From Dehalococcoidia bacterium (GTDB lineage Bacteria; Chloroflexota; Dehalococcoidia; UBA2979): 64,000 nucleotides of DNA. The DNA lies in NCBI GenBank assembly GCA_964291495.2, contig OZ219871.1:512001-576000 (forward strand), written 5' to 3'. Positions within the stretch are counted from its first letter, which is position 1; each line of letters opens with the position of its first letter. The notes under the pieces were generated by a model. That model saw nothing but the letters and a program-made list of their open reading frames with translations. It was not told the origin of the DNA and searched no databases. Positions 2,918 to 39,273 of the stretch are shown here, one piece after another. Position numbers and translations under genes: made by a program.

Positions 2918-2945
2918 GGTCGCGGCCTCCCGTCTGCCGGGACGC

Positions 2946-6062: not shown

Positions 6063-8291
6063 TCACCCCGCCTGGTCCGGGTCGCTCTGGTCGTCCCCAA
6101 GCTCGAAGTCCACATGGTGGATGGTGCCGCCGAACGGGAACGGCGAGCGGTAGAGATCGCTCACGGCGGTCTTCGAGTCCTGGCCGATGTCCAACCCCTC
6201 GATCGCAACCAGGCCGGCGAACGTCCCGGCGATGGAACCGCCGCCGACGAGGGCGCCGTCGACGTAGAGGCTCGCTTCGCCGGTCAGGTCTCCGCTCTTC
6301 TCGAACCGCATGCTCACGCTGGCGCGGCCGGGGGGCACGTCCGTTTCGGAGACGATCCGGGTGCGTCCGGGCTGGTGGTTGTACTCGAAGATCAGGCGAC
6401 CGTCCTGGATGAAGAAGCTGTAGCCCCCCGTGATCCCGCCGCGTGCCACGATCACGCCTTCGTCGTCCGCGGTCCGTCGCTCGATCGCCGCCGTAATCGT
6501 GTACGAGCGGTTACGAGTATCCGGAGCCGCGTTCGACGGGATATGAGCAATGCCCGCGTAGCAACGGAAGCGGCTCTGTTCGGCCGGGGTGCCCGGGGGC
6601 GCGGGCAGCGACAGCGTACCGTCGAGGCGGGTGTCCAGCGGCAGGATGTCGTAAAGACCGGCAGCAACCCACCAACGCTCCACCAACTCCCGGAGCTTCG
6701 GCGGGTACTCCACCGCGAGATCCTGACTCTCCGAAAAGTCCTCGTCCAGGTGGTAGAGCTCCCACTGGTCCTCTTCGAACTCCGTGGCGGGGTCGTGGTA
6801 GGCGACGGCCTTCCAGCCCTCGTGCCAGATGGCGCGATGGCCCGCCGTCTCGAAGTACTGCGTGCGCTTCCTGGTGGGTGCGCGCGGATGATCGAACGTG
6901 TACGCCATGCTGGTGCCATGGATCGGCATCTGGCGGGTTCCCTGATGCGTGGTCGGCGCCTCCAGATCGAGGAGCTCCATGATCGTCGGCGTGACATCCG
7001 TCATGTGATGGAACTGGCTGCGTGTCTCTCCGCCGTCCTTGATCCGCGCCGGCCAGCTGACGATCATCGGAACGCGGACGCCGCCCCCGTGCGTGTTGAT
7101 CTTGTAGCGCTTGAGCGGCGTGTTCCCGACCTGAGACCAGCCGTACGCCGAGAAGGAGTGGGAATCCGGCCCGCCGATCTTGTCGATGTTGGGCAGGTTC
7201 ACCGAATGATCGACCGGGATCTGGTTGTAGTTCACGAGGAACGTGCCGGTCGGCGATCCTGCCTTGGCCCCATTGTCGGACACAAGGATCGTGAGCGTGT
7301 TCTCGAGCTCGCCGATCGATTCGAGGTAGTCGAGCAGTCGTCCGATTTGCGCATCGGTGTGGTCGAGCATCGCGGCGAAGGCTTCCTGGAAGCGCGCGGA
7401 GACACGCTGGTCCTCGGCTGAGAGCTCGTCCCAGGGGAGCACGTCGTCGTTTCTGGGGGCGAGCTCGGTGCCGGTGGGGATGATCCCCATCGCCAGTTGT
7501 CGCTCGTAGACCTCCTGCCGTTCTACGTCCCACCCCCGGTCGAAGCGCCCGCGGTACTTCGCCAGCCACTCCGGAGGCGCCTGCAGCGGGGCGTGGCAGG
7601 CGCCGAACGCCAGGTAGAGGAAGAACGGCTTGCTGGGCATGAGCGAGTGCTGGTTGCGGACCATGGAGATGCTCTGGTCCACCAGATCCTCGCTCAGGTG
7701 GTAGCCCTCGCCCTCCGGCCGTGGCCGGGGATGGTTGTCCTCCGTCAGCACCGGCTCGAAGTGGTCGGTGAGGGAATCGAGGAATCCGTAGTAGCGCTCG
7801 AAGCCCTTCTGCAGCGGCCAGTTATGGAAGGGCCCAACCGCGGACGTCTCGGCGATCGGGGCCTGGTGCCACTTGCCGACCGCGAAGGTGCTGTACCCGT
7901 TGGACTGCAGCAGCTGCGCCAGGGTCGCCGCCGCGGGCGAGATCGCGCCGCGGCCGCGGGGGAAGCCCGAGTTCCAGTTCGGATTGTTGCCCATCCCGAC
8001 CGAGTGGTGGTTCCGCCCGGTCAGCAGGCTCGCCCGGGAAGCGGCGCAGACCGGCGGCACGTGGAAGTTCGTGTAGCGGACGCCCGCCTCGGCGAGCCGG
8101 TCCATGTTCGGCGTCTCGATCGCCGACCCGTAGCAGCCCAGGTGGGCGAAGCCGACGTCGTCCAGCACGATGATCAGGAAGTTCGGGCTTCCCGGCTCGG
8201 CCTCTACCGGGCGCGGCCACCACGGTATGGACTCGTGCAGGTAGCGACCGATGACGCCCTCGAACGCCGCGTCAGATCCCGCTTCTGACAT
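6063..8291 (-). CDS. Arylsulfatase (formylglycine-dependent family)
   Basis: PNFLIIVLDDVG, CAASRASLLTGRNHH, GKWH, SDNGA motifs. Confidence 0.92.
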   Translation of the reverse strand: MSEAGSDAAFEGVIGRYLHESIPWWPRPVEAEPGSPNFLIIVLDDVGFAHLGCYGSAIETPNMDRLAEAGVRYTNFHVPPVCAASRASLLTGRNHHSVGMGNNPNWNSGFPRGRGAISPAAATLAQLLQSNGYSTFAVGKWHQAPIAETSAVGPFHNWPLQKGFERYYGFLDSLTDHFEPVLTEDNHPRPRPEGEGYHLSEDLVDQSISMVRNQHSLMPSKPFFLYLAFGACHAPLQAPPEWLAKYRGRFDRGWDVERQEVYERQLAMGIIPTGTELAPRNDDVLPWDELSAEDQRVSARFQEAFAAMLDHTDAQIGRLLDYLESIGELENTLTILVSDNGAKAGSPTGTFLVNYNQIPVDHSVNLPNIDKIGGPDSHSFSAYGWSQVGNTPLKRYKINTHGGGVRVPMIVSWPARIKDGGETRSQFHHMTDVTPTIMELLDLEAPTTHQGTRQMPIHGTSMAYTFDHPRAPTRKRTQYFETAGHRAIWHEGWKAVAYHDPATEFEEDQWELYHLDEDFSESQDLAVEYPPKLRELVERWWVAAGLYDILPLDTRLDGTLSLPAPPGTPAEQSRFRCYAGIAHIPSNAAPDTRNRSYTITAAIERRTADDEGVIVARGGITGGYSFFIQDGRLIFEYNHQPGRTRIVSETDVPPGRASVSMRFEKSGDLTGEASLYVDGALVGGGSIAGTFAGLVAIEGLDIGQDSKTAVSDLYRSPFPFGGTIHHVDFELGDDQSDPDQAG

Positions 8292-8321
8292 GCCGTAGCC
8301 CGTCCTCCCGCGCGTTCGCGA

Positions 8322-9212
8322 CTACTCCCCGCGCAGCCGCGGATCGAGGACGTCGCGCAGCGCGTCCCCGAACATGTTGAAGGCGAACACCACCAGCGTG
8401 AGCGCCATCCCGGGGAACAGCACGAGCCAGGGATTGCTCGCGAAGTAGAAGCGCGATTCCTCGCCGCCGATCATGCGCCCCCAGGAAGGCGTGGGCGGCG
8501 GGACGCCAAGGCCGAGGAAGCTGAGCGCGCCCTCCGCGAGGATGACGCTGCCGAGGCTGACGGTCGCGATCACGATCAGGGGCGAGACCACGTTCGGGAA
8601 GATGTGCCGCACGATCACGCGCGGCGTGTTGGCTCCCACAACCCTCGCCGCCTCGACGTAGGTCGACTCCTTGACCGCGAGGGTGGAGCCGCGAACCACG
8701 CGGGAGTTGGCCGCGATCATCAGCACGCCGAGTACGAGCGTGACGTTGAGCGCGCTCGGCCCCAGCACGGCGACCGCCACCAGCGCAAGCACCAGCGGCG
8801 GATAGGCCATCACGCCGTCTACCACGCGCTGGATGACCATGTCGGCCTTTCCGCCAACGTAGCCTACCCAGAGCCCGAGGATGGTGGCCGCCCCGGTGCC
8901 GATCGCGACCGCCCCGAAGCCGATGAACACGGAGAGTCGCGCGCCGACGATGATGCGGCTGAACTGATCGCGTCCGAACGCATCCGTCCCGAAGGGGTGG
9001 TCCAGCGTGGGGCCGGAGAGGCGGGGCCCGACGGAGATCGCCGACGTCTCATACGGCACGATGTACGGACCGATCGCGCCGAGCACGATGAACAGCCCCA
9101 CGACCGCGGCGCCAAAGGAGCCCAGCGGTTGCTTGCGCAGAAAGCGCCACAGATTCCGGCGCAGCGAGAGCACGCGCCCGCGCGGACGGGAGAGGCTCGC
9201 CGCAGCCGTCAT
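8322..9212 (-). CDS. Peptide/nickel-type ABC transporter permease (DppC-like)
   Basis: HPFGTDAFGRD, YVEAARVVGA, RHIFPN, LSFLGLG, DALRDVLDPR. Confidence 0.93.
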   Translation of the reverse strand: MTAAASLSRPRGRVLSLRRNLWRFLRKQPLGSFGAAVVGLFIVLGAIGPYIVPYETSAISVGPRLSGPTLDHPFGTDAFGRDQFSRIIVGARLSVFIGFGAVAIGTGAATILGLWVGYVGGKADMVIQRVVDGVMAYPPLVLALVAVAVLGPSALNVTLVLGVLMIAANSRVVRGSTLAVKESTYVEAARVVGANTPRVIVRHIFPNVVSPLIVIATVSLGSVILAEGALSFLGLGVPPPTPSWGRMIGGEESRFYFASNPWLVLFPGMALTLVVFAFNMFGDALRDVLDPRLRGE

Positions 9213-9263
9213 CGCCAGTCGCCCATCGCTCTCACCGTCCCTGCCGCCCGGCTCGTGCGCCGC

Positions 9264-10211
9264 TCATCCGTAACGGATCTGCGGGTTGAGGAACCCGTAC
9301 AGGAGGTCCACTCCCAGGTTGACGAGCATCACGAACACGCCAAAGAGGAGGACCACGCTCTGGATCATCATGAACTCGCGCTCGTGGATCGACTCCAGCA
9401 TGAGGCGCCCCAGCCCAGGCAGCCCAAAGATCGACTCGATGATCACGCTCCCGCCGAGCAGGGTGGCGACCGATAGCCCGATCACCGTGACCACGGGGAT
9501 CGCCGCGTTCCTGAAGGCGTGCCTCGTGACCACGCGGTACTCGGTCAGGCCCTTCGCGCGGGCCGTCCGCACGTAGTCCGCGCGGATCACCTCCAGCATC
9601 TCCGAACGCACCATGCGCATCACCGTGGCGCCCAGCCGGAGCGAGAGCACCAGCGCGGGCAGGAGCAGGAGCTTGATGTTCTCGATGGGCTCCTGGTCGA
9701 ACGGGACGTACGGGCGCAACGGTGTCCACCCCCACCAGATCGCCGGCAGTACGATCAGCAGCGTCGCCAGCCAGAAGTTGGGGATCGACAGCCCGCCGAT
9801 AGCGAGCGAGCGGACGGTCAGATCGATTAATGAGCCCGGCTTCAGCGCCGAGATCAGGCCCGTGGGGACGCCGAGGATCACCGCGAAGAGGATCGAGAGC
9901 ACGTCGAGTTCGACCGTGACCGGCAGCGCACGCCAGACGCGCTCCCGCACGCTCTCCTTGCTGAAGATGGAGTCGCCGAGGTCGCCCCGTACCAGCCCGC
10001 CCATCCAGTCGAGGTACTGCTCGAGCAGGGGCCGGTCGAGTCCCAGCTCGGCACGGATCTTTGTGCGATCGTCCTTCGGCACGCCAGCCTCGGCCAGCCG
10101 GTCGTCGAGGGCGTCGCCCGGCAGCAGCCGGATCGAGCCGAAGACGATCAGCGAGATGATGAACACCGTGGGCGGGACCAGGAGCACCCGCCGCATCACG
10201 TATTCGTTCAT
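9264..10211 (-). CDS. Peptide/nickel-type ABC transporter permease (DppB-like)
   Basis: LGLDRPLLEQY, DYVRTARAKGL, HAFRNA, ESIFGLPGLG. Confidence 0.93.
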   Translation of the reverse strand: MNEYVMRRVLLVPPTVFIISLIVFGSIRLLPGDALDDRLAEAGVPKDDRTKIRAELGLDRPLLEQYLDWMGGLVRGDLGDSIFSKESVRERVWRALPVTVELDVLSILFAVILGVPTGLISALKPGSLIDLTVRSLAIGGLSIPNFWLATLLIVLPAIWWGWTPLRPYVPFDQEPIENIKLLLLPALVLSLRLGATVMRMVRSEMLEVIRADYVRTARAKGLTEYRVVTRHAFRNAAIPVVTVIGLSVATLLGGSVIIESIFGLPGLGRLMLESIHEREFMMIQSVVLLFGVFVMLVNLGVDLLYGFLNPQIRYG

Positions 10212-11263: not shown

Positions 11264-14200
11264 TCACGCCCAGGACTTGCCTGACGGCATCGGCAGCGCG
11301 CCCGCCGGGACGATCTCCTCGAGGGCGTCCGCGATCAGCGTGCGCTGCTCGCCGGCGCGCTCGTCGAGCACGCCGCGCGTGCGCACGAAGGCCGCCGTGC
11401 GCACGATGTCGCGCCGTTCCTCGGCCAGCTCGCGCCGCACGAGGATGTTCATCAGGCCGTACTCGTCCTCCAGCAGCAGGAAGATGATCCCGCGCGCGGT
11501 GAGCGGGCGCTGGCGGCAGACCACCAGCCCCGCGACCTCCACCGTGCGCCCCGCCGGCAGCGAGTGCAGGTGGCGGCTGGAGGCGACACCCTCGCCGAGC
11601 GCGCGGCGCAGAAGCGCATCGGGTGGCGGTCGGGCGAGAGGCCGATCAGCGCGTAGTCGGCGGCCATCCGCTCGTAGGGGCCGAAGTCGGGCAGCGTCAC
11701 CATGTCCTGCACGGTCGGCAACTCGAGCCGCAGCTGGCGCCCGTCCGCCTCCGCCGAGGGCGCGCCCGTCGCTCCGGCGACGGCTCCGCCCGTGAACAGC
11801 CCGAGCTGCCAGAGCAGCTCGCGGCGCTGCAGACCGAAGCCGTCGAAGGCGCCGACCTGGATCAGCCGCGCCGCCGGCTGCCGGCCCAGCCCAGTGCGCT
11901 GCACGAAGTCGAACAGCGAGCGGTACTCGCCGGCGCGCTCGCGCTCCTCCTCGATGCGCTCGGCCCAGGCCTCGCCGAGGCCGCGCACGTAGCCGAGGCC
12001 GACGCGAATCGCGCCCGGCAGCTCGACCGTGCAGCGAGCGGCGCTGACGTTGATGTCGGGCCGCTCGACGGCGACGCCGTGGCGCTTGGCGTCGTTGGTG
12101 AGCACGTGCGGGGGGTAGAAGCCCATCGGCTGGTTGTTGAAGAGCGCGCAGAGGAACTCGGGGGCGTAGCGCTGCTTGAGCCAGCTCGACTGGTAGGCGA
12201 GCAGGGCGAAGGCGGCGCCGTGGCTCTTCGGAAAGCCGAACTCCGCGAAGCCCGCGAGGTTGCCGAAGACTTTTTCCGCCACCGCGGGCGGCACGCCGCG
12301 CTCCGCCGCACCGACGAGGAAGCGATCGCGCCAGGCCTCGAGCTCCTCGTGCGCGCGGCGGCGGCCCAGCGAACGGCGGAAGCGGTCGGCCTCGCCGGGC
12401 GTGAAGCCGCCCATGTGGCGGGCGACCTGCAGCACCTGCTCCTGGAAGATCACCACGCCCAGCGTCTCGTCCAGCACTTCGCGCACGCACTCGTGCGGCG
12501 GGGCGGGGCGGTAGCGCGGGTTGCGGCGCTGCAGCTCGCGCCGCCGCACGTAGGGGTTCACCGCGCCGCCGACGATCGGCCCCGGCCGCACGATCGAGAC
12601 CTGCACGGTGAGGTCCTCGAGGTTGCGCGGCTGCGTCCGCGGCAGCATCGCGATCTGCGCGCGGGACTCGATCTGGAAGACGCCGACGGTGTCGCCGCGG
12701 CAGATCGCGTCGTAGACCGCCTCGTCCTCGAAGTCGATGCGCGAGAGGTCGACGATGCGCCCGCGGCCGTCGGCGATCAGGTCGATCGTCTCCTCGACGA
12801 CGGAGAGCATGCCGAGCGCGAGGAAGTCGATCTTCACCATCCGCGCGTCGTCGACGGAGTCCTTGTCCCAGTGGCAGAGGTAGCGGCCCGCCATCGCCGC
12901 CGGCTGGCAGGGCACGCAATCGATCAGCGGCCCCGAGGCGATCACCATCCCCCCGGAGTGCTGCGAGAGGTGGCGCGGCACGCCCGCCAGCTGCGGCACG
13001 AGCGCGGCCAGCTCGCGCCAGCCGCGCGCCTCGGCGCGGTCGCGGAACTGCGGCGATCGCGCCAGCTCCTCGGGCAGCTGTCCGGGCCCGGCGTAGGGGC
13101 CGGACAGCCCGGCGAGACGGTCCAGCTCCGCCGGGGGCAGCCCCAGCGCCTTGCCCACGTCGCGGACCGCGCTGCGCAGCCGGTAGGTGGCGAAGGCGGC
13201 GACGAGCGCGCTGCGCTCGCGGCCCCAGCGCGCGTGGACGCGCTCGATCAGCTCGGCCCGGATGTCGCGCGGGAAGTCGAGGTCGATGTCGGGCAGCGAG
13301 TCCATCTCCTCGTTGAGGAAGCGCCCGACGAAGAGGCGGTGGCGAATCGGATCGATGTGCGAGAGCCCGATCAGGTAGCAGACCAGCGAGGAGACCGAGG
13401 AGCCGCGGCCGCGGCCGGGCGGCAGGTTGGTGACGCTGCGGGCGGCGCCGGGTCCTCGCACCTCGCGGGCCACCTCCTGCGCCAGCAGGAAGATCTCGTG
13501 GTAGATGAGGAAGAACCCGGCGAGGTCGTGCAACTCGATCAGCCGCAGCTCCTCGGCCAGCTGCGCCTCGGCCCGGGCGCGCTCGTCCGCCGAGCGGTAG
13601 CGCTCCCCCAGCAGCTCGCGGCAGATCCGCTCCAGCTCCTGCAGCGGCGTGACGCCCTCGGCCAGCGGCGGTGAGGGCAGCCGGTAGCCGAGGTCGGCGG
13701 TGAGGTCGAAGGGGCAGCGGCGCGCGATGCGCACGGTGTTCGCCGCCGCCTGCGGGTGGTAGCGCGCGAAGCGCTCCGCCTGCTCCCGCGGGCTGCGCAG
13801 CCAGAACTCGGCGTTCGGCCGGCGCTCGGCATGGCACTCGTCGAGGCTGGCGTTGTGGCGGATCGCCACCAGCACGTCCTGCAGCCGGTGCCGCTCGCGC
13901 ACGTGGTAGTGCACGTTGCCGGTGCCCACTACCTCCACGCCCGCCTGCTCCGCGAGGGCGACCAGCGCCTCGTTGCGCGGGCGGTCGCCGTGCACGTCGT
14001 TGTCCTGCAACTCGACGAAGACCCGGTCCACCCCGAACCAGCCGACGAGGCGATCGAGCGCCGCGGCCGCCTCGGCGCGCCGTCCCGCCTGCACGAGGCG
14101 AGGGATGCGGCCCTCGCGACAGCCGGTCAGCACGATCAGCCCGTCCGCGTGCCGCTCGAGGTCGGCGAGCGGCAGGACCGGGTCGAGCCGCCGGGCCTCC

Positions 14201-27317: not shown

Positions 27318-28532
27318 CTACCCGGGCGTGTTGTCGTATCCGGCCGTGATCGGCTGGTCCGTGCGCTGGCCGCTGCTGCCCGCCGGGCTGAAGCGCTCGA
27401 CCACCTCGCCCAGCTCGTCTCGCCCCGCCGCGGCCGGCGCCTCGGCGGGCTGTCCGGGCAGCGAGGCGACGTGCAGCGTCTGCGTCGGGAACGCGAACTC
27501 CACGCCCAGCTCCTCGGCCAGCCGCATGATGTCGAGGTTCAGCACATGCCGCGTGCGCAGCTCGGCGTTCCAGTCCGGCGCGGTGATGAAGCAGTAGACG
27601 AGGATCTCGAGCGATGACGCGCCGAAGTCGACGAACTCGACGATGTAGTAGTCCTTGCGCATGTCGGGGTTGGCGCGGACCAGCGCGCGGATGCCCTCGG
27701 TGAAGGCCTGTATCTGGTCGGGCGTGGTGTGGTAGGCGACGCCGAGGGTGGTCCGGTAGCGCCGCCACTGCCGCAGGCCCATGTTGTCCACCGAGGTGTC
27801 GACGATGCGCGCGTTCGGCACGGTCACCACTGAGTTGTAGAAGGTCCGCACCCGCGACGAGCGGAATCCCACGTGCTCGACCGTGCCCTCGAGATCACCG
27901 ACGACCACCCAGTCGCCCACCTGGAACGGGCGGTCGGCGAAGATCGTGACGCCTCCGAGGAGGTTGCGGAACGTGTCCTGCGCGGCGAGCGCCACCGCGA
28001 GCCCGCCGAGCCCGAGCCCGGCCACGAGCGATGTGATGTTCACACCGAGGTTCCCGAGGATGAAGAGCACGCCGATCACGAGCGTGGCCACCTTGAGGGT
28101 GGTGTTCGTGATCGGCACCAGTTGATCGTCGAGGCGGCTCTCGGTCAGCTCCGCGCGTCGCTCGAGCACGTCCGTGAAGATGTCGACGCCTCGGAAGCCG
28201 AGCAGCACGAGCGCGCCCGCGCCGAGCAGGCTCGCGAGTTGCTCGACGATGTCCTCGACGGCGACGGGGAAGTCGAGGGCCGGGAAACCCAGCAGGAACG
28301 TGACGGCCACGGCCAGCGCCCACAGCGCGCGCCCGAGGCGCCCGCGCTCCTCTTCCCAGAATCGGTGGTCGTCCTCGTCGAAGCGCGTCCGCACATAAAG
28401 CTTGAGCACCTGGTTGACGACCACGTAGGTGAGCGCGGAGACGGCGACCAGGATGACGAGCCCGAGGTACTGCTCGACCTCGATCCCGAGGTAGGTGTCC
28501 TGGAACCAGGCTGGTGCGAGGAAGGGGGGCAC
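27318..28532 (-). CDS. Small-conductance mechanosensitive channel (MscS family)
   Basis: GLGLGGLAVALAAQDT, DRPFQVGDWV, GTVEHVGFRSSRVRT, EFAFPTQT. Confidence 0.93.
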   Translation of the reverse strand: MPPFLAPAWFQDTYLGIEVEQYLGLVILVAVSALTYVVVNQVLKLYVRTRFDEDDHRFWEEERGRLGRALWALAVAVTFLLGFPALDFPVAVEDIVEQLASLLGAGALVLLGFRGVDIFTDVLERRAELTESRLDDQLVPITNTTLKVATLVIGVLFILGNLGVNITSLVAGLGLGGLAVALAAQDTFRNLLGGVTIFADRPFQVGDWVVVGDLEGTVEHVGFRSSRVRTFYNSVVTVPNARIVDTSVDNMGLRQWRRYRTTLGVAYHTTPDQIQAFTEGIRALVRANPDMRKDYYIVEFVDFGASSLEILVYCFITAPDWNAELRTRHVLNLDIMRLAEELGVEFAFPTQTLHVASLPGQPAEAPAAAGRDELGEVVERFSPAGSSGQRTDQPITAGYDNTPG

Positions 28533-28684: not shown

Positions 28685-29623
28685 GTGAGCGCTCCCCTGC
28701 GCGTACTGACCTGGATGCCGCCCGAGATGACCGAGCGCATCAACGAGGTCGAAGGCGTCGAGTTGATCCACATCCCGGCGCGCGGACCGTTCCCCGAGGA
28801 CGCGAACGGCGACGTGCTGCTGGTCGGCGCGCGCAGCGTGCCCGTCATGGAGGAGGCGCTGAGCAGCGGCGTCCGCTGGATCCACATCTACGGTACCGGC
28901 GTCGACGGCTTCCCGATCGAGCGGATCGAGGGCGATCAAATCCTCAGCTGCTCACGCGGGGCGAGCGGCGTGCCGATCGCCGAGTGGGTGATGGCGACGC
29001 TGCTCGCCTTCGAGAAGCGGCTGGAGGAGACGGCGATCCACGAGCCCTGGGATCGCCGCCGCGACCCCGGGCTGGGCACGCTCGAGGGCAAGACACTGGG
29101 CCTCGTGGGGCTCGGCGGCATCGGCCTCGCCCTGGCCGAACGGGCGCTGCCGTTCGGGATGCGCGTGCTCGCCCTGCGCCGTCACCCGCGACCGAGCGAG
29201 GTGCCCGGCGTCGAGATCGCGAGCGACCTCGGCGAACTGCTCGCCGAGGCGGACCACCTCGTGCTCGCCGCTCCGGCGACCGCCGCGACGCACCACCTGA
29301 TCGACCGTGAGGCCCTCGGGCGGGTGAAGCCGGGCGTCCACCTGGTCAACGTTGCGCGCGGATCGCTGGTCGACAACGACGCGCTGCGCGAGGCGCTCGA
29401 CGACGGGCGCATCGCGATGGCCTCGCTCGACACGATCGAGCCGGAGCCGCTGCCCGCCGGACACTGGCTCTACTCGCACCCACAGGTGCGGGTGACCCCG
29501 CACCTCTCGTGGAGCATGCCGGCAGGCCGCGATCGGATCGTCGACATCTTCGTCGCGAACCTGCGGCACTTCATGGCGGGCGAACCCCTCGAGGGCGTCG
29601 TGGACGTCGAGGAGGGCTACTAG
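28685..29623 (+). CDS. D-isomer-specific 2-hydroxyacid dehydrogenase
   Basis: GLVGLGGIG, LVNVARG, EPEPLP, VTPH; GTG after AGGAAGG. Confidence 0.9.
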   Translation: MSAPLRVLTWMPPEMTERINEVEGVELIHIPARGPFPEDANGDVLLVGARSVPVMEEALSSGVRWIHIYGTGVDGFPIERIEGDQILSCSRGASGVPIAEWVMATLLAFEKRLEETAIHEPWDRRRDPGLGTLEGKTLGLVGLGGIGLALAERALPFGMRVLALRRHPRPSEVPGVEIASDLGELLAEADHLVLAAPATAATHHLIDREALGRVKPGVHLVNVARGSLVDNDALREALDDGRIAMASLDTIEPEPLPAGHWLYSHPQVRVTPHLSWSMPAGRDRIVDIFVANLRHFMAGEPLEGVVDVEEGY

Positions 29624-30543
29624 CCGCGCAGGTAGCGGGCGGCTGCGCTCGCGGCGGAGACGGCCTCGCCGACGGCTTCGGCCACGTGGCCGCCGTAGCC
29701 GCGCCGCACGGCGCCGGCGGCGAAGACGCCCGGCAGTGAGGTCGCGAACTCCGCATCGGTGACGACGTAGCCGTCCTCGCACGCCACCTCGGGAGGCAGG
29801 AACTCGCTGTTGGGGATCGAGCCGATGAAGGGGAAGACGGCCTTGCAGGCCAGCTCGCGGACGCTGCCGTCCCCGACGCCGCGCAGCCGCACGCCCTCGA
29901 CCGCGCTGCCTCCGAGGACTTCGTCGACGACGCTGCTCCAGACGAACTCGACGTTGTCGAGCCGGGAGAGCCGGTTCACGTAGTCCGGCTTCGCCCGCAG
30001 CGGGCTGCGCGCGACGACATAGACCCTGCGACAGAAGCCGGCGAGGACCAACGCCTCCTGCGCAGCGGCGTCCCCGCCCCCGATGACCGCGACGTCCTCG
30101 CCTCGGTAGAGGTGGCCGTCGCACCAGGCGCACTGCGAGACGCCCTTGCCCAGCAACTCGCGCGCGCCGGGCGCCTCAAGCGGCCGGAGCCGCGCGCCGG
30201 AGGCCACGACGACGGCGCGGGCGCGCTGTCGCTCGCCCGCGGCGAGAGCGGCCAGGCCCCCACCCCCAACGGTGAGCGACTCGATCGCAGCCCGGTGGAA
30301 CACGACGCCGAGCGAGCGGCAGCGCTCGACGAGGTCGACGGCGAGGTCGACGCCGGAGAGCGGCCCGACGGCCGGGTAGCCGTCGAGCAGCTCGACGGTC
30401 GCGATCTGCCCGCCGAACAGCGGCTCGCCCTCGATCAGGGCCGTGCTGAGGCCGGAGCGGGCGGCGTGCAGCGCGGCGGTCAGGCCGGTGACGCCGCCGC
30501 CGATGACGAGGACGTCGTACCTGCCGTGGCGCCGGCTCACCAT
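29620..30543 (-). CDS. Thioredoxin-reductase-like FAD/NAD(P) disulfide oxidoreductase (atypical)
   Basis: YDVLVIGGGVTG, GGQI, GKGVSQCAWCDG (CxxC), VIGGGDAA, TSLPGVFAAG. Confidence 0.88.
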   Translation of the reverse strand: MVSRRHGRYDVLVIGGGVTGLTAALHAARSGLSTALIEGEPLFGGQIATVELLDGYPAVGPLSGVDLAVDLVERCRSLGVVFHRAAIESLTVGGGGLAALAAGERQRARAVVVASGARLRPLEAPGARELLGKGVSQCAWCDGHLYRGEDVAVIGGGDAAAQEALVLAGFCRRVYVVARSPLRAKPDYVNRLSRLDNVEFVWSSVVDEVLGGSAVEGVRLRGVGDGSVRELACKAVFPFIGSIPNSEFLPPEVACEDGYVVTDAEFATSLPGVFAAGAVRRGYGGHVAEAVGEAVSAASAAARYLRG

Positions 30544-30562
30544 CGTCGGGCTCGTGCGGCCG

Positions 30563-32305
30563 TCAGCGCGTCCGCGCCTCGGCGAGCCGCGCGTCCCAGT
30601 CGGCGGGGAGCTCGATCTTCTTCGCGACCGGGTAGCCGAGCCTGCCGTTGTGCGAGAAGGTGATGGCGTTGTTGCGCAGCGGGTCGCCCGCGACCGCGAC
30701 CATGAAGTCGTCGGGCTCGAAGACAATCGGCACCAGCCGGTTCGGGTCGTCCGATTCGAGGAACACGCGCGGGATCCGGCCGAGGTTGACCTCCGCCTCG
30801 AGCGAGCGGATCACGTGGTCGGTCCAGTCGCCGAGGTAGCGCTCGAACTCCCACGCGGGCAGCCTCGCGTGGTCGAAGAGGTACTGCTTCACGTCCTGCT
30901 TGCTCCAGCCGGCCTTCGCGATCGTCTGCGCGAGGATCGGGCTGAGCACCAGCAGCGGGCGCAGCGAACCCATCGACTTGCCGACGGTGAAGATCAGCTG
31001 CCAGGTGTTCTGCTTGAGCACCGCGTCCGCGATGTAGGGCAGCACGCGCTCCGGCGTGTCGCCGTAGACCGAGGCCATCATGTCGCCGCCGGTGTAGCGC
31101 GCGATGGTGACGGTGTTGTCGCCGGCCTCGAAGCCGAACTCGGCGCTGGTGGGGGGCCAGCCGATCCCGGCGAGGACGTCCTCGTTCTCCGCCAGCACGA
31201 CGCGCCAGGTGTTGCCGAAGGTGGCCTTGTCGTTCTTGTGCAGCAGGAAGCCGGCGACGTTGCGCAGGTAGAGGCGCCAGAAGCGCCCGACCGAGCTGTT
31301 CGCCTGGAAGCCGTCGCGCAGCACGCCCTGCTCGTAGTTGAACCCGAGCTCCTTGATGATCGGCCCGTTGAGCGTGATGAGGGTCTCCGCGCCGGGCGTG
31401 TTGCCGCTGTGTTCGACGCCGTACTCCGGGTCGGCCATCGCCTCGGCGAGAGCGACCAGCACCGGCATGTACTCCGGCCGGCAGCCCGCCATCACCCCGT
31501 TCACCGCGATGCTCCAGATCGTGACGGCGCGGTTGTCCGCGAGGATTACGCCGATCACCTCGTCCGGATCGCGATCGGTGAAGGCGAGGAACTGCTCCAC
31601 CTTCTCGATCGTCGGTGGGACGATCGGCAGGCCATCGCTCCACTCGCACTCGGTGAAGTGGCGATTGACGTCCTCAAAGCTGCCCTCGAAGACAATCTCG
31701 CGCGGCGAGGGTTCGTCGAACGCCGGCGCGTCCTCGGGGGATTCGAGGAGATTGGCGACGACGGCGTCGAGCGTCACCTCGAGGACGTTCCGCTTCATCT
31801 CCTCCTCGCTCTGGTTGCCGACGTGGCCGGGCACGAGCGCGAGCGGCAGGTTCGGCAGCCCGAGGCCGGCCGAGGTCGTGCCGGCCTGGCCGATGAAGCC
31901 CTCGCAGACGAGCGAGGAGGTCGGCACGCCGGCCAGCTCGCACGCTGCGCTTGCCCGCATCACGGCGGGCGTGCAGCTGCCTCAGCAGCCCATCCCGGAG
32001 ATGGCGGCGTCGACCCCCAGCTCCTTGAAGCGCTGCGGCAGCGAGGCGAGAACCTCGCGCTCCTCGGCGCCGTGCGTGGTGCCGAACTCGCGCCAGCTCA
32101 CGAAGCTGACGCCGGGATAGCGGGCCTCGAGCTGCGGCTCGAGCAGGTCGAAGACCTCGTCGCCGCGGTACACATAGTCCCAGAGCTGGGCGATCGTCTT
32201 GCCGGCCAGCGTGTCCAGCCGCGGCGCGAGCGGCATCGGTTGGAGTTGCCGCTTGCTGCGCGGCCAGACCACCCGGTAGTGGCCGCCGTCGTTGCTGTTC
32301 GTCAT
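30563..32305 (-). CDS. UGSC-family selenoprotein (580 aa, C-U-G-S-C) fused to a DGLPxVPPT domain; in-frame TGA at 31984-31982 read as Sec
   Basis: ORFs 31982..32305 and 30563..31963 are in the same frame and join as GMGC-TGA-GSCTPAVMRAS; SECIS-like hairpin follows the TGA. Confidence 0.85.
31944..31977 (-). promoter_or_regulatory. Putative bacterial SECIS hairpin of the UGSC gene
   Basis: GCUGC-AC-GCCCGC-CGUGAU-GCGGGC-AAGC-GCAGC; apical loop starts 17 nt after UGA with G at loop position 2. Confidence 0.65.
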
Positions 32306-32351
32306 GGCTTCGGCTCCCTCGAGGCCGGCGCTGGCGCGCGGGTCGTGCGCG

Positions 32352-32801
32352 CTACTCGCTCAGTTCGTCGCGCACGGCGCCCTGATCCGGGTGCATCCAC
32401 TCGCCCTCGTAGCGCCGGTGCGCGAACTTCCACTCGCCGTCGACCTTGCGCAGGCGGTCGAAGTAGCGGCCCGCCAGGCGCAGGACGCCGTCCGACATCC
32501 CCCACGCGGCGATGTAGCACTCGACGCGCGCCTCGTCCGGCGCGCCCTCGACGGCCTCGATGGCGAGGCTGTTCGTCCAGTGGCGGTAGTCGTCGCCGGT
32601 CACCTCGAAGAGCCGGCGCATGTACGCCTCCAGGCCTTCGCGCCCCTCGTGGCGGAACGCCCAGTCCGGGCCGATCAGCTCGAGCACGCCGTCCTCGGTG
32701 AACATCGCCGCCGTCCGCTCGGCCTCGCGGCGGTCGTAGGCGAGGTTCTGACGCGCGAACAGGTCGCGGATCGCCTCGCGGTCCTCGAGCGTGAGCGCCA
32801 T
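32352..32801 (-). CDS. SnoaL-like / NTF2 family protein
   Basis: MALTLEDREAIRDLFARQNLAYD...FTEDG...RHWTNSL...GRYFDRLRKVDGEWKFAHR; GAGGAGG RBS. Confidence 0.88.
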   Translation of the reverse strand: MALTLEDREAIRDLFARQNLAYDRREAERTAAMFTEDGVLELIGPDWAFRHEGREGLEAYMRRLFEVTGDDYRHWTNSLAIEAVEGAPDEARVECYIAAWGMSDGVLRLAGRYFDRLRKVDGEWKFAHRRYEGEWMHPDQGAVRDELSE

Positions 32802-32946
32802 CGCTACCTCCTCGCCCGCCGGTGCCTCGGCCAGCATAGTGCCCCGGCGCGGCGCGGTGTCGGGCGCTGTGGCGCCGCCGGTCGCCAGCCCGCTAGCATG
32901 CGTTTCCCCGCACGTCGGCCGCGCACGCGGCGGAAGGACCGTCCCC

Positions 32947-34179
32947 ATGCCAGACGAGAGCCAGGAAAGCCAGTACTCGATCCGCTACACGAATCCGATC
33001 TACGGCGAGGAGGAGATCGCCGCCGTCGTCGAGGCGCTTCGCACCGAGCCCGAGCTGCAGGTGGGCCCGCGCGTGCGGGAGATGGAAAGCCGCGTCGCGG
33101 CGATGTTCGACAAGAAGTACGGCGTGATGACGAACTCCGGCACCTCGGCGCTGTACCTCGCCGTCGAGCTGCTCGACCTGCCGCCGGGGAGCGAGATCAT
33201 CACCTCGATCATCAGCTTCTCGGCCACGTTCGCGCCGATCGTGCGCGGCGGGCACGTCGCCTCGTACGTCGATGTCGAGTTCGACACATACAACATCGAC
33301 GTGGACAAGATCGAGGAGATGATCACCCCCAACACGAGGGCGATGCTGATCCCGAACCTGATCGGCAACGCGCCGGACTGGGAGAAGATCCGCGAGATCG
33401 CGGACCGTCACGACCTCAAGGTGGTCGAGGACTCGGCGGACACGCTCGGCGCGGAGCTGCGCGGCAAGACGACGGGCACCTGGACCGACATCAGCATGAC
33501 GAGCTTCGCGCGCTCGCACATCATCACGAGCGGGGGCAGCGGCGGCCTCGTCGCCGTCAACAGCGAGGAGGAGTGGGACCGCGCGCTGCTGCTGCGCCGC
33601 TGGGGCCGCACCTCGGAGGTGCAGATGTACGGCTCGAAGCAGGGCTCGGGCGACCGCTTCGAGGCCGTGATCGACGGCATTCCCTACGACACCTACTTCA
33701 TCTTCGACGAGGTCGGCTGGAACTTCGAGCCGTCGGAGATGCACGCCGCGTTCGGCCTCGTGCAGCTCGGCAGGCTCGAGGAGTTCTACCAGGCGCGCAA
33801 GCGGCGCTTCGACATGCACACAGACTTCTTCAACCTCGAGCGCATCCGGGAGCGCTTCGTCCCGGCGCGCCAGTTGGAGGATCTGAAGACCAGCTGGATC
33901 TCCTACCCGCTGATGATCCGCGAGGACGCGGGCTTCAGCCGCGCCGACTTCCAGCAGTACATGGAGGCCAACGGCGTCCAGACGCGCATGGTCTGGTCCG
34001 GCAACATCCTCCGCCAACCCGCCTTCAGGGACACTCCGCACAAGGCCGCGCCCGAGGGCTACCCGAACGCCGATCGGGTCATGGAGTACGGCCTGATCCT
34101 GCCGATGAATCACGCGGTGCCGACCGACGACATCGAGCAGATCCACGGGCTCATCGACGAGTTCGTCCGCACACGCTGA
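32947..34179 (+). CDS. DegT/DnrJ/EryC1/StrS family PLP enzyme, RfbH/ColD-like (His at the Schiff-base Lys position)
   Basis: TNSGTSAL, PNLIGN, EDSADTLG, TSFARSHIITSGGSGG. Confidence 0.85.
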   Translation: MPDESQESQYSIRYTNPIYGEEEIAAVVEALRTEPELQVGPRVREMESRVAAMFDKKYGVMTNSGTSALYLAVELLDLPPGSEIITSIISFSATFAPIVRGGHVASYVDVEFDTYNIDVDKIEEMITPNTRAMLIPNLIGNAPDWEKIREIADRHDLKVVEDSADTLGAELRGKTTGTWTDISMTSFARSHIITSGGSGGLVAVNSEEEWDRALLLRRWGRTSEVQMYGSKQGSGDRFEAVIDGIPYDTYFIFDEVGWNFEPSEMHAAFGLVQLGRLEEFYQARKRRFDMHTDFFNLERIRERFVPARQLEDLKTSWISYPLMIREDAGFSRADFQQYMEANGVQTRMVWSGNILRQPAFRDTPHKAAPEGYPNADRVMEYGLILPMNHAVPTDDIEQIHGLIDEFVRTR

Positions 34180-34201: not shown

Positions 34202-35392
34202 ATGGCGTACGGGGACACCGAGCACGACGAGGCGCTGCGCAGCGCCTGGCACGCCTTCTGCGACCGCCTCAAGGACGTGGGCGAGCTGGTCTTCGCGGAC
34301 CCCGCGCCGGCGACGCCCCTCGAGCGCGCGGTCGGGCTCCAGTACGTCGCGCGCAACATCTCGGCGGGGCTCGAGATCGGGCTCGAGCACGCCGATCCGC
34401 TGTACCCGCAGCTCTTCCGGATGATGGCGCCGAACCGCAAGCGCGGCGGCGACAACCCGGACTGCGTCTACTTCCTCGGGATCATCGACGGCAGCGAGAC
34501 CTACCGCCTGGTCGGCAACCGCGGAAGCGCGCACTTCGTCGCCTTCTCCGCGGTCCGCCCGCTGGAGACCAGTCCGGAGGGCGAGGCGGCCGAGGTGGGA
34601 CGGCTGCTCGGCGACGAGCTCGAGACCGAGTGGGACGGGAGCTTCGTCGTGACGGTCAGCCCCGACCCGCAGCCCGGCAACTGGGTCCGCACGACGCCCG
34701 AGGTCGACAAGGTCTGGGTCCGCCAGTTCTTCGGAGACTGGAATCGCGAGCAGCCGATGAACGTGCGGATCGAGCGCGTCGGCGCCGAGGGCGCGCCGCC
34801 GCGGCTCACGCCGGAGCGCCTCGTCGAGGGCCTGGAGGCGGCCGTCGAGGAGCTGCACGAGACCGTCGACTACTGGCGTGGCTGGCAGGAGCACTACCGC
34901 GCCCAGCCCAACCGCTTCCTCGAGTCACCCACGGCGCGGAAGCTCGGGGCAGCCCCGGGCGGGCTGCCGCAGCACGTCTACTTCATGGTGCAGCCGGACG
35001 AGGCGCTGCTGATCGAGTTCACGCCGCCGGCGTGCTCCTACTGGAACTTCGAGCTGAACACCTACTGGATGACCTCGATCGACTACCGCTACCACCTCTC
35101 GAGCATCAACGGCTCCCAGGCGGTGCTGGAGGACGACGGTTCGGTGATCCTCGTCGTAGCGCACGACGACCCGGGCGTCCCCAACTGGCTGGCGACGGAC
35201 GGGCACTGCGAGGGCCACATCGGCCTGCGCTGGATGCAGGCCGACTCCCAGCCGACCCCCGCCACGAGGCTGGTCAAGCTCGCCGACCTGCCCTCGGTCC
35301 TCCCGCCGGGCGCACGGCGCATCGACGAGGCGGGTCGGCGGGAGCAGCTGCGGCTGCGGCGCATCGGCGTGGATCGGCGCTTCCGGATCTAG
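34202..35392 (+). CDS. DUF1214-like domain protein
   Basis: GGDNPDCVY, YRLVGNRG, RQFFGDW, PDEALLIE, DPGVPNWL...GH. Confidence 0.7.
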   Translation: MAYGDTEHDEALRSAWHAFCDRLKDVGELVFADPAPATPLERAVGLQYVARNISAGLEIGLEHADPLYPQLFRMMAPNRKRGGDNPDCVYFLGIIDGSETYRLVGNRGSAHFVAFSAVRPLETSPEGEAAEVGRLLGDELETEWDGSFVVTVSPDPQPGNWVRTTPEVDKVWVRQFFGDWNREQPMNVRIERVGAEGAPPRLTPERLVEGLEAAVEELHETVDYWRGWQEHYRAQPNRFLESPTARKLGAAPGGLPQHVYFMVQPDEALLIEFTPPACSYWNFELNTYWMTSIDYRYHLSSINGSQAVLEDDGSVILVVAHDDPGVPNWLATDGHCEGHIGLRWMQADSQPTPATRLVKLADLPSVLPPGARRIDEAGRREQLRLRRIGVDRRFRI

Positions 35393-35483
35393 CCGCCCAC
35401 TCCATCCCGGCCGCGCCCGGTCCGCGAATGCGCCTCGTGGCGGCGTGGTACCGTCGCCGCATCCGATCGGAGAGGACCGCCAC

Positions 35484-36293
35484 ATGGACGATCTACGCGG
35501 GAAGGTCGCCGTCGTCACGGGCGGCGGGAGCGGCATCGGGCGCGGTATCGCGGAGGCGCTCGCCGAGGCCGGCGCACGCCTCGTCATCGCGGACATCGAG
35601 GGGTTGGCGGCGGAGGCAGTCGCGGCGCTGATCAGGGACGGGGGCCACCCGGCGATCGCGCGGCGCACCGACGTGACCGACGCCCACGACCTCGAGAGCC
35701 TCGCCGAGACCACCATCGAGACGTTCGGCTCCATCCACGTGCTGGTCAACAACGCCGGCGTGATGACGATGGGGCCGCTGGCGGAGGCGACCGAGGCCGA
35801 CTGGGACTGGCTGTTCGACGTCAACGTGCGCGGCATGGTGCGCGGCGTGCGCGCCTTTCTCCCCCACCTGCGTGCGAACGCGCCCGCGCACATCGTGAAC
35901 ACGATCTCGATGGCCCCCGTCGCGCCGCGGCTCGACGGCGAGATGGGCATCTACACCGCCTCGAAGGGGGCGGCGCTCGGGTTCACGGAGGTGCTGCGCG
36001 CGGAGCTGGCGGACGAGGGGATCGGCGTCACGGCGGTCTGCCCGGGCCCGGTGGATACGCGCCTCTACGAGGCCGAGCGCAACCGTCACGAGCGCTTCGG
36101 CGAAGGCAGGGCGATGGACACGCCCTCGTGGGCCCACCGCCAGCAACCGGACGAGGTTGGCGCGATGGTCGTCGACGCGATCCTGCGGAACGCCGGCTAC
36201 CTGTTCACGGATCTCGACTCGCGCGGCCGCATCGAGGCGCGCGAAGCGCGGATCCGCGAGGGGCTAAACCACCTCGAGCAGAGCAGCGCGTAG
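35484..36293 (+). CDS. Short-chain dehydrogenase/reductase
   Basis: TGGGSGIG, VNNAG, YTASK. Confidence 0.92.
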   Translation: MDDLRGKVAVVTGGGSGIGRGIAEALAEAGARLVIADIEGLAAEAVAALIRDGGHPAIARRTDVTDAHDLESLAETTIETFGSIHVLVNNAGVMTMGPLAEATEADWDWLFDVNVRGMVRGVRAFLPHLRANAPAHIVNTISMAPVAPRLDGEMGIYTASKGAALGFTEVLRAELADEGIGVTAVCPGPVDTRLYEAERNRHERFGEGRAMDTPSWAHRQQPDEVGAMVVDAILRNAGYLFTDLDSRGRIEAREARIREGLNHLEQSSA

Positions 36294-37591: not shown

Positions 37592-38203
37592 CTACCCGCC
37601 GTTGCGCCGAGGCACCTCGAGCTGCTCCATCACCTGCTCGAAGACCGCGTACTCCTGCGCGCCGACCACGGCGTCGCGCTCGTTGAAGATGAACGTCGGC
37701 ACGCCGCGCACGCCGATCTCGCGCGCGAGCGCGATGCGTTCGTCCACCTGCGCGCGGTAGCGCCCCTCGCCCAGCACCGCGCGCAGCTCATCGCGATCGA
37801 GTCCCTGCTCCCCGCCGATCTCGATCAGCGTCTCGAGGTCCCCGATGTCCGCCTCGCCCTCGAAGTGCGCGGCGAAGAGCGCGCGGTGCAGGCCGTCGCC
37901 GTCGTGGCCGATCTCCTGCGCGTACTCGGCGGTCTCGAGGGCGAGGTGCGAGTTCGGCGTGAAGCGCCGTCCGCGGCGGAAGGTGATGCCGACGCGCTCG
38001 CCGCGCAGCTCCAACTGCGTCGGCGGGTCGTCCGGCTTCGTGCGCGGCTCGCGCTCACGGCCCTCGGGAGGGATCGAGGCGTCGAGCAGGTACGGCCACC
38101 AGCGGACCTCGAGCTCGTACTCGCGCCGCAGCTTCTCGACCTCCACGAGGCCGACGTAGCACCACGGTCAGATGAAGTCGCTGACGATGATCAGTGAGGT
38201 CAT
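37592..38203 (-). CDS. DsbA/FrnE-like selenoprotein with a UxxC (U-P-W-C) active site; in-frame TGA at 38170-38168
   Basis: ATG 38203 gives MTSLIIVSDFI-TGA-PWCYVGLVEVEK in frame with 37592..38146; GVRGVPTF, GAQ motifs; hairpin after TGA. Confidence 0.87.
38136..38154 (-). promoter_or_regulatory. Putative SECIS hairpin of the DsbA-like gene
   Basis: UCGGCCUC-GUG-GAGGUCGA (8 bp including one GU), loop 21 nt after UGA. Confidence 0.6.
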
Positions 38204-38337
38204 GGCGGGCTGCCCTCGCCTTCCGGGCGCCGTGCCCTGCTCTCAGTATGACGCCTGCGCGCTCGCGCGGCAGCGCGACCGGCGGCGCTGCTACCATCCA
38301 CGCCCCCGCCGCCGCGGCACGAATGGAGCGAGGGCGC

Positions 38338-39273
38338 ATGAAGTTCGGGCTGTTCCTCATCGAGTCGCCGCACCGCGCGCACGTCGGGCCCAGCGGACGC
38401 CACGCCGAGCCCGGCCAGGGCGCCGCCCTGACCTCGCCCGAGTACCTCGGCGGCCTCGCGCGCTTCGCCGAGGAGGTCGGCTTCGACTTCGTCTCCTTCC
38501 CCGAGCACGTCGTGCTGCCCGTGGACTACGAGTCGCGCTACCCGTACCAGCAGTACGAGGGCGGCGACTTCAAGCGCTACCCCTACGACGAAACGGCGTT
38601 CCCCGAGCCGGTCACCGCCCTCACCTTCGTCGCCGCCGTCACCGAGCGGCTGGAGCTGGGCACCTCGGTGCTGATCCTGCCGCAGCGCAATCCGGTGATC
38701 CTCGCCAAGCAGCTCGCCACCCTCGATGCGCTCTCGCGCGGACGCGTCAGCCTGACCGTCGGCATCGGCTGGCTGCGCGAGGAGTTCGCGGCGATCGGGG
38801 TGCCCTGGGAGCGCCGCGCGCGGCGCGCCGACGAGTACATCCAGGCGCTGCGCACGCTCTGGCGCGACGAGGTATCGACGTTCCGGGGCGAGACGGTCTC
38901 CTTCGAGCGGATCCGCTGCCTCCCCAAGCCCGCGCAGCCGGACGGCCCGCCGATCATCGTCGGCGGGCACAGCCTCGGCGCGGCGCGGCGCGCGGGCCGC
39001 CTCGGCGACGGCTTCATGCCGCTCGGCCTTGGCGGATTCGGGGGCGAGGACGTCACGCCGCTGCTTGAGGCCTGGCGCGAGGCGGCAGCCGCCGCCGGAC
39101 GCGAGGAGGCGGCGACGGAGCTGCGCATGGGCGCCGCGCCCGACCTCGAATCGGTGCGGCGCGTCGCCGAGCGCGGCGCGACGAGGATCCACTTCTCGTT
39201 CTCGGCGCCGAGCCTCGACGAGGCGAAGCGCGAGCTGGAGCAGATCGCCAACGAGGTGATCGAGCGCTTCTAG
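38338..39273 (+). CDS. LLM-class F420-dependent oxidoreductase
   Basis: PEHVVLP, LGTSVLILPQRNP, LAKQLATLD, GIGWLREEF. Confidence 0.9.
   Translation: MKFGLFLIESPHRAHVGPSGRHAEPGQGAALTSPEYLGGLARFAEEVGFDFVSFPEHVVLPVDYESRYPYQQYEGGDFKRYPYDETAFPEPVTALTFVAAVTERLELGTSVLILPQRNPVILAKQLATLDALSRGRVSLTVGIGWLREEFAAIGVPWERRARRADEYIQALRTLWRDEVSTFRGETVSFERIRCLPKPAQPDGPPIIVGGHSLGAARRAGRLGDGFMPLGLGGFGGEDVTPLLEAWREAAAAAGREEAATELRMGAAPDLESVRRVAERGATRIHFSFSAPSLDEAKRELEQIANEVIERF

Follow-up and report, generated by a model that had tools for sequence, protein, structure and literature searches.

A UGSC selenoprotein fused to an unclassified domain, and a flavoprotein as its probable partner, in a Dehalococcoidia bacterium

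UGSC proteins have ranked among the most numerous selenoproteins of ocean and freshwater metagenomes since 2005-2008; the part of the 2008 survey by Zhang and Gladyshev that deals with them describes a major selenoprotein family of the GOS metagenomes, with 255 selenocysteine (Sec) and 21 cysteine (Cys) sequences sharing a UxxC motif, and reports a fusion of UGSC with a domain called 'Unknown_1' in ocean metagenomes (PMC2398784). That survey and a 2026 review group these proteins with selenoproteins that resemble thiol oxidoreductases (PMC2398784, PMC13188914), and the relevant entries of the 2022 and 2026 reviews list the family, as NF041046, among selenoproteins with largely uncharacterised functions (PMC9312934, PMC13188914). 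A full-text literature search for 'UGSC' returned no functional study of these proteins. As a working analogy, the closest are the B proteins of D-proline and glycine reductases (PrdB and GrdB), in which Sec attacks the substrate, a Cys resolves the adduct to a Se-S bond and a dedicated reductase chain regenerates the enzyme, a chain that includes thioredoxin reductase (TrxR) in the case of glycine reductase. We analysed a 64,000-nucleotide (nt) stretch of a Dehalococcoidia bacterium genome (contig OZ219871.1, positions 512,001 to 576,000; hereafter the window) in which a gene string encodes, judging by comparison with its relatives, a genuine UGSC-family selenoprotein decoded at UGA108, fused to a large C-terminal domain and followed by a TrxR-like flavoprotein. 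A first-pass annotation had presented this string as the best candidate for an undescribed system and knew of no function assigned to UGSC proteins. The statement on function agrees with the 2026 review, but the family is already catalogued (PF24696 / NF041046) and its fusion dates from 2008; the locus adds one member to a selenoprotein family that is known but whose function is uncharacterised, and neither family nor fusion is new. What is new here is a Rossmann-like model of the UGSC domain, a set of weak but repeated matches to PrdB and GrdB, and a confidently modelled, unclassified C-terminal domain with invariant residues.

Standard open reading frame (ORF) finding splits the fusion gene into two pieces lying in one frame, of 107 aa (31982..32305) and 466 aa (30563..31963). 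Read through the single TGA that separates them, as the first-pass annotation had suggested with the junction GMGC-U-GSCTPAV, they give a 580-aa protein running ...AISGMGC-U108-GSCTPAVMRASAACE..., and a single Pfam UGSC domain (PF24696; 103.4 bits against a gathering threshold of 25, E 1.9e-29), aligned from profile position 2 to 168 of 172, extends across the TGA. A scan of one genome per species yielded at least 611 confirmed relatives, and 80 loci from different species were kept for comparison. The codon aligned to U108 is TGA in 59 of these 80 loci and TGC or TGT in 19; two loci do not cover it and no other residue occurs. C111 is kept in all 77 loci that cover it, while the residue before Sec varies (C 37, G 18, A 17, S 4, four uncovered). 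The conserved centre is therefore U/C-x-x-C: of the C-U-x-x-C centre claimed earlier, the UxxC part stands and the preceding Cys, present in 37 of 80 loci, does not. Among 8000 scored database candidates, 4957 matched at E <= 0.001; the 120 best of these comprise 104 gene calls that start beyond the TGA, 15 full-length proteins (96-99% coverage), each with Cys at position 108, and one longer protein (861 aa). Most public calls thus start 3' of the TGA, so annotation pipelines hide the redox domain. The first-pass annotation had proposed to look for the Sec machinery in the genome as well as for Cys/TGA exchange, and the former is also present: in this genome, estimated to be 93.7% complete, selA (523.6 bits), selB (301.7 bits), selD (368.3 bits) and a tRNA-Sec (77 bits; anticodon tca according to ARAGORN) all score above their curated cut-offs. 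The selD gene (G000:C5:1608812-1609747) itself contains one in-frame TGA, suggesting that selenophosphate synthetase is also a selenoprotein in this organism.

A hairpin resembling a Sec insertion sequence (SECIS) follows the TGA (Table 1), as had been noted from the sequence. We compared it across 60 Sec-type sequences, the window and 59 related loci, counting nucleotides from the U of UGA. The six upper-stem pairs (nt 15-20 with 27-32) are formed in 49, 54, 57, 57, 60 and 60 of the 60 sequences, the loop reads CGUGNU, and the pair 15-32 covaries (GC 42, AU 4, GU 3). Overall, 79.7% of the stem cells are paired, against 26-49% when the partners are slid by one to three columns. In four close Cys forms the T-P-A-V-x-R-A peptide is unchanged, but other codons, CGC or CGU, specify its Arg and only three to five of the six stem pairs remain, so that the upper stem is conserved in Sec forms and disrupted in their nearest Cys relatives. 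Selection on an RNA structure linked to the decoding of Sec would produce such a pattern. In the divergent members L081, L082, L090, L063 and L075, hairpins of another kind occupy this position.

The window protein shares with the UGSC family its domain, its U-G-S-C motif and its Sec/Cys exchange. An AlphaFold2 model of the whole protein, built from 27 aligned sequences, reached a mean pLDDT (predicted local distance difference test) of 90.4 and a pTM (predicted template modelling score) of 0.91. In this model the UGSC domain is predicted to have a Rossmann/flavodoxin-like arrangement, where the 2008 paper had guessed a thioredoxin-like fold (PMC2398784), and U108-G-S-C111 is predicted to lie between a strand and a helix, at the helix start. 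The NF041046 model is matched at E <= 0.1 by all 27 full-length fusion homologues (best E 1.3e-17). Of 151 genomes sampled from the phylum, 12 gave a UGSC match, the window's own counted and two matches from the unpublished genome G077 included; most complete matches are fused forms of 550-660 aa with one TGA. A divergent clade (L085-L089, L091-L100) of about 30% identity comes from gut and rumen metagenome-assembled genomes (MAGs) of Bacteroidales, Lentisphaeria, Akkermansia, Bacillota and Treponema; its members always carry Cys, in the motif GN[GC]GCG[LI]CT, and have no hairpin.

The fusion of the UGSC domain to a large conserved domain, recognised earlier from the strings WSDGLPIVPPT and AVNGVMAGCRPEY, was borne out, both strings being present. 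We infer that this C-terminal domain is the 'Unknown_1' of the 2008 fusion. No Pfam family matched the C-terminal 400 aa at E <= 10, and among 45 diverse family members searched at E <= 1 UGSC alone recurred, leaving the C-terminal domain unmatched. Neither the protein itself nor a profile of 27 sequences found a credible relative in sequence searches of the PDB, and an ESM Atlas search returned only unnamed or automatically named clusters. Modelled alone from 45 aligned sequences, the domain nevertheless gave a very confident fold (pLDDT 93.7, pTM 0.93), for which the best Foldseek matches were class I (Fe-S) fumarate hydratase and Toblerone-fold cyclic amide hydrolases (E 6.4e-4, probability 0.82), with about 186 residues aligned. 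The family is large, with 4232 representatives at 50% identity (E <= 0.001). R341, N349 and E373 are kept in all 80 loci, D224 and N336 in 79, N269 and C275 in 78, and these conserved polar residues look like a substrate-binding active site. The likely catalytic part of the protein is a large, confidently modelled domain with neither a Pfam family nor a solved relative.

The domain occurs after UGSC, both before and after UGSC, doubled, and alone (about 380-410 aa). A 523-aa protein encoded near another UGSC gene of the same genome (L114:5413-6984, +) joins an AhpC/TSA-like N-terminal domain to a C-terminal-domain paralog (30% identity, E 9e-35), and a stand-alone UGSC selenoprotein gene (L114:7021-7539, +) lies directly 3' of it, so that the pairing is met here in a split or alternative form. 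Across these contexts the C-terminal domain is accompanied time and again by a redox module of the thiol or selenol type. Longer architectures also exist, P0186 (1254 aa), P0206 (1226 aa) and P0078 (861 aa), with two copies of the C-terminal domain around the UGSC domain; P0206 adds a domain of the copper amine oxidase N-terminal type, which suggests a cell-envelope-associated version.

Weak matches to the Stickland selenoprotein B models recur among the 27 full-length members: PrdB in 16 (best E 4e-4), GrdB in 8, GrdH in 7, the general selenoprotein-B model TIGR01918 in 5 and GrdF in 5. Residues 88-183 of the window protein align to positions 129-219 of the PrdB profile, placing U108 near position 149-152. 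PrdB also has a UxxC motif, whose Sec is residue 151 in C. difficile and 152 in C. sticklandii (PMC11229817, PMC3091704, PMC1088965 Table 3), so that both proteins have UxxC with Sec at about the same profile position. The partner domain, by contrast, is a different and unclassified one, and the pyruvoyl proprotein family was not found in the genome. The hosts differ as well, UGSC fusions coming from aerobic or aquatic and sponge-associated lineages and PrdB/GrdB from Stickland fermenters. A search for GRDB (PF07355) in five genomes carrying Cys or Sec fusions found none, a weak blank given that the GRDB control matched nowhere either. The likeness to PrdB/GrdB can serve as a working analogy and may reflect remote homology, but does not amount to membership; the Sec domain looks distantly like these proteins rather than like thioredoxin.

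The flavoprotein gene follows the fusion gene after 19 nt (fusion stop 30563, reductase start 30543). Its product shares with the low-molecular-weight thioredoxin reductase TrxB (TIGR01292) the two-domain architecture for FAD (flavin adenine dinucleotide) and NAD(P)H (reduced pyridine nucleotide) and the invariant CxxC, C138 and C141 being present in 18/18 homologues linked to a fusion gene and in 28/28 database homologues. It differs from TrxB in scoring 243.8 bits against an equivalog cut-off of 343.45, although the match is full length (profile 1-300 of 300), in its nucleotide-specificity stretch, and in being genomically tied to UGSC-fusion genes. No gene of the genome reaches the TIGR01292 cut-off; the best score, 282.9 bits, belongs to a second TrxR-like gene elsewhere, compared with 243.5 bits for the flavoprotein of the locus. 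A flavoprotein homologue was found by tblastn within about 3 kb of the fusion gene in 18 of the 80 loci: 12 of the 54 whose flanks reach at least 3 kb on either side, and 6 of the 26 shorter ones. Seventeen of the 18 group with the window's gene in a single ORF cluster, in most cases on the same strand. The 18 loci come from Alpha- and Betaproteobacteria, Acidobacteria, Actinomycetota and a Lachnospiraceae MAG. The order fusion, stand-alone C-terminal-domain paralog, flavoprotein is seen in nine of these loci, and the flavoprotein is directly adjacent in the others. Among 18 genomes of the same genus, ten keep the pair contiguous at 87-93% DNA identity. The flavoprotein, which the first-pass annotation had grouped with the fusion, is therefore a recurrent neighbour, and it is probably a real partner that recharges the fusion protein. 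A distinct TrxR-like flavoprotein tied to the fusion in several phyla is a concrete and testable candidate for the electron donor.

Other neighbours recur around the fusion in the 80 neighbourhoods: solute receptors of the TctC type in 18 loci, short-chain dehydrogenases/reductases (SDRs), CoA-transferases, PrpD-like enzymes and thiamine pyrophosphate (TPP) enzymes, with a DctP-type receptor gene beside the fusion in one locus. These genes hint at imported organic acids as substrates. No recurrent cluster of thioredoxin-like ORFs was found among the 80 neighbourhoods. Three neighbour clusters without a Pfam family (L042:7625-8443:-, L033:3081-3566:-, L068:4986-5471:-) were judged to be antisense ORFs of real genes and set aside.

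On this basis, we consider it reasonably probable that the locus encodes a UGSC selenoprotein made of a Rossmann-like Sec domain and a catalytic-looking C-terminal domain, recharged by the TrxR-like flavoprotein, with the SnoaL-like gene that precedes the pair standing outside the unit. UGA108 would be read as Sec with the help of the conserved hairpin starting about 12 nt downstream; the Sec108/Cys111 pair would give two electrons to a substrate bound by the C-terminal domain, or to Cys275, and end as a selenenylsulfide, which the flavoprotein would re-reduce through its CAWC disulfide using a reduced pyridine nucleotide. Direct reduction of the UGSC domain without a thioredoxin is plausible because no conserved thioredoxin neighbour appears. 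A bolder proposal, which we offer as speculation and think unlikely, is that fusion and flavoprotein form a self-contained selenoenzyme driven by pyridine nucleotide, whose substrate would be a small organic acid or amine brought in by the neighbouring transporters and cleaved reductively; by analogy with PrdB and GrdB, Sec would attack, Cys111 would resolve to Se-S, and a new catalytic domain (D224, N269, C275, R341, N349, E373) would replace the pyruvoyl proprotein. If true, this would give a Stickland-like reductase function to one of the most abundant aquatic selenoprotein families, in aerobic bacteria.

Several results weigh against the selenoprotein-flavoprotein pair as we describe it. 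Folded by itself, the 68-nt segment behind the TGA did no better than shuffled sequence (z -0.38); single-sequence folding energy is undistinctive in this GC-rich DNA, and the comparison across homologues was needed to show the hairpin. The equivalog cut-off of NF041046 is not reached (50.9 vs 125 bits), probably because that model describes the stand-alone form of about 150 aa. The PrdB model TIGR04483 gives 17.1 vs 300 bits, all PrdB and GrdB matches being far below their cut-offs, and neither PF07355 (GRDB) nor PF09338 (Gly_reductase, PrdA/GrdE) was found at E <= 0.1 in the organism's own genome (93.7% complete), blanks that are weak for the reason given above for GRDB. The TrxR-like neighbour is missing in 62 of the 80 loci, and the five other UGSC genes of the genome have no adjacent TrxR-like gene, the nearest lying 4.5 kb from one of them; the neighbour is therefore not obligatory. 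Finally, the stretch of the flavoprotein that matches the motif of pyridine-nucleotide specificity, HRRxxxR in E. coli TrxR, reads ARSPLRAK, which leaves the electron donor and the nucleotide preference uncertain.

Other explanations account for part of these data. That the TGA is a true stop, separating two genes or marking a pseudogene, agrees with the public gene calls, which treat it as a stop and in the great majority of the best homologues begin 3' of it. We nevertheless hold this to be extremely improbable: one Pfam domain and one confident predicted fold cross the TGA, TGA and Cys are swapped at exactly this codon, the hairpin 3' of it is conserved, the genome has the Sec machinery, and four other UGSC genes of the genome have one TGA at the equivalent place. 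The redox partner is a more serious matter. Low-molecular-weight thioredoxin reductases normally need a substrate with the thioredoxin fold, and the UGSC domain, being modelled as Rossmann-like, is therefore not an obvious TrxR substrate; the flavoprotein could thus be linked to the fusion and yet act through a separate thioredoxin-like carrier encoded elsewhere, as in the NADPH/TrxR/Trx/GrdA chain of glycine reductase, whose regeneration via TrxR and thioredoxin is described in the corresponding section of a published account (PMC3091704). A DsbA-like gene of the thioredoxin fold (PF01323, E 2.1e-21; window 37592-38146, -), about 5 kb from the operon, could be such an alternative carrier. Against a separate carrier, a thioredoxin-like ORF recurs in none of the 80 neighbourhoods, the linked flavoproteins score too low for the TrxR equivalog model and the genome has a stronger TrxR candidate at another place; the last two observations fit a specialised partner. 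We regard a separate carrier as unlikely, though by no means negligible. Less likely again is that the fusion serves as a general antioxidant or thiol-disulfide oxidoreductase, reducing peroxides or protein disulfides without a specific small-molecule substrate. The UxxC motif at a helix start, the AhpC/TSA-like domain fused to a C-terminal-domain paralog and the placing of the family among thiol oxidoreductase-like selenoproteins in the passages cited above are all in keeping with such a role, but the near-invariant polar residues of the C-terminal domain resemble a substrate-binding active site, and the neighbours are solute receptors, CoA-transferases, PrpD and SDRs, with catabolic enzymes beside the paralogs.

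The first-pass annotation had proposed a three-component reductase in which the SnoaL-like protein, of the NTF2 fold, handles a small substrate, while the chemistry takes place at a C-U-x-x-C centre that receives its electrons straight from the flavoprotein. The three genes are indeed arranged head to tail on the minus strand with the SnoaL gene first, the gaps of 46 nt (SnoaL stop 32352, fusion start 32305) and 19 nt given earlier are correct by coordinates, and a scan of 29300..33200 found no terminator-like site in either gap. The trio is contiguous in three congeneric genomes at 92-93% identity, and in a sponge metatranscriptome run (X23) short contigs match parts of the fusion gene (e.g. 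31473-31626, one difference) and the SnoaL gene. None of these contigs bridges the TGA or a gene junction, so they are not evidence of co-transcription, and such contigs, although they come from an RNA library, may stem from DNA. Comparison of neighbourhoods, which had been suggested as a check, supported the fusion and flavoprotein (18 of 80 loci, 10 of 18 congeners) but not the SnoaL gene: no SnoaL homologue is adjacent to the fusion in any of the 80 loci, the only two matches being weak and more than 2.4 kb away, and the gene precedes the pair in just three of the ten congeners that keep it. In the other seven, the best SnoaL match is at another place on the chromosome, at distances such as about 20 kb or over 100 kb. 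SnoaL paralogs of 83-84% DNA identity are found elsewhere in this genome (G000:C6:820324-820720) and in congeners. The gene thus appears to belong to a mobile or expanding family within the genus and is probably a local, recently acquired neighbour outside the conserved unit. Together with the variable residue before Sec, these data make the three-component arrangement very doubtful, and the unit that we retain is the fusion with its flavoprotein.

As a selenoprotein discovery the locus is ordinary; its use lies in defining a conserved unit of two, sometimes three, genes together with an unclassified catalytic domain. Cultivable carriers open the way to genetics, namely Vineibacter terrae for the Sec form and Curtobacterium pusillum and Nocardioides sediminis for the Cys form.

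Table 1. Positions of the genes, domains and sites at the locus and of related features in the same genome
Feature	Position	Strand	Remark
SnoaL_4 (NTF2-fold) gene, 149 aa	32352..32801	-	PF13577, E 5.2e-25
UGSC-fusion selenoprotein gene, 580 aa	30563..32305	-	ATG at 32305; in-frame Sec codon; stop TGA 30565..30563
UGSC domain, residues 12-184	31754..32272	-	predicted Rossmann/flavodoxin-like alpha/beta fold
UGA codon read as Sec, U108	31982..31984	-	TGA/Cys exchange in 80 related loci
SECIS-like hairpin	31944..31977	-	GCCCGC/GCGGGC as upper stem (31970..31965 paired to 31958..31953); CGUGAU as loop; lower stem weaker
C-terminal conserved domain, residues 196-580 (385 aa)	30566..31720	-	without Pfam family or solved relative
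Cys275 codon, motif NGVMAGCRPEY	31481..31483	-	Cys in 78/80 loci
TrxR-like flavoprotein gene, 307 aa	29620..30543	-	Pyr_redox_2, E 7.1e-34
Redox-active CAWC of the flavoprotein, C138 and C141	30121..30132	-	invariant in homologues
Further UGSC genes	C2:105527-106030, C2:42608-43114, C5:177816-178316, C6:241434-241940, C6:573622-574137		genome G000
Shared surroundings, window side	27318-28532, 34202-35392, 35445-36293, 38194-39272
Shared surroundings, C2 paralog side (L114)	2577-3635, 11778-12974, 8865-9635, 7638-8828

The three-gene string is flanked by a divergent gene for a DegT-type aminotransferase and a convergent one for a 2-hydroxyacid dehydrogenase. Direct reading of the sequence gives a strong Shine-Dalgarno site, GAGGAGG, for the SnoaL gene; that of the fusion gene is GAGGGAG, 8 nt 5' of its ATG. 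The dehydrogenase gene (+) ends at 29623 and the TrxR-like gene (-) at 29620; their stop codons overlap, so there is no space for a terminator between the two genes. The scan of 29300..33200 also returned no promoter-like site, and two terminator-like sites that both lie within coding sequence, against about 0.7 expected by chance, which is uninformative.

UGSC genes number six in the 3.1-Mb genome, and five contain one TGA. Apart from the fusion gene of the window, they comprise four with one TGA and one without (L108-L113), with open frames of 184-638 aa that indicate both stand-alone and fused forms and an unusually large set of paralogs. Genes for luciferase-like monooxygenases, SDRs, an aldo-keto reductase, enoyl-CoA hydratases and a CoA-transferase are found beside these paralogs. 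One of them is adjoined by a gene of the Rdx/SelW family (PF10262, E 2.8e-19; L116:7364-7735, -), a family whose members are often selenoproteins. Genes for an MscS channel, a DUF1214 protein, an SDR and a luciferase-like monooxygenase surround both the window locus and a UGSC paralog on contig C2 (Table 1), and the two surroundings may be paralogous regions or reflect a shared functional context.

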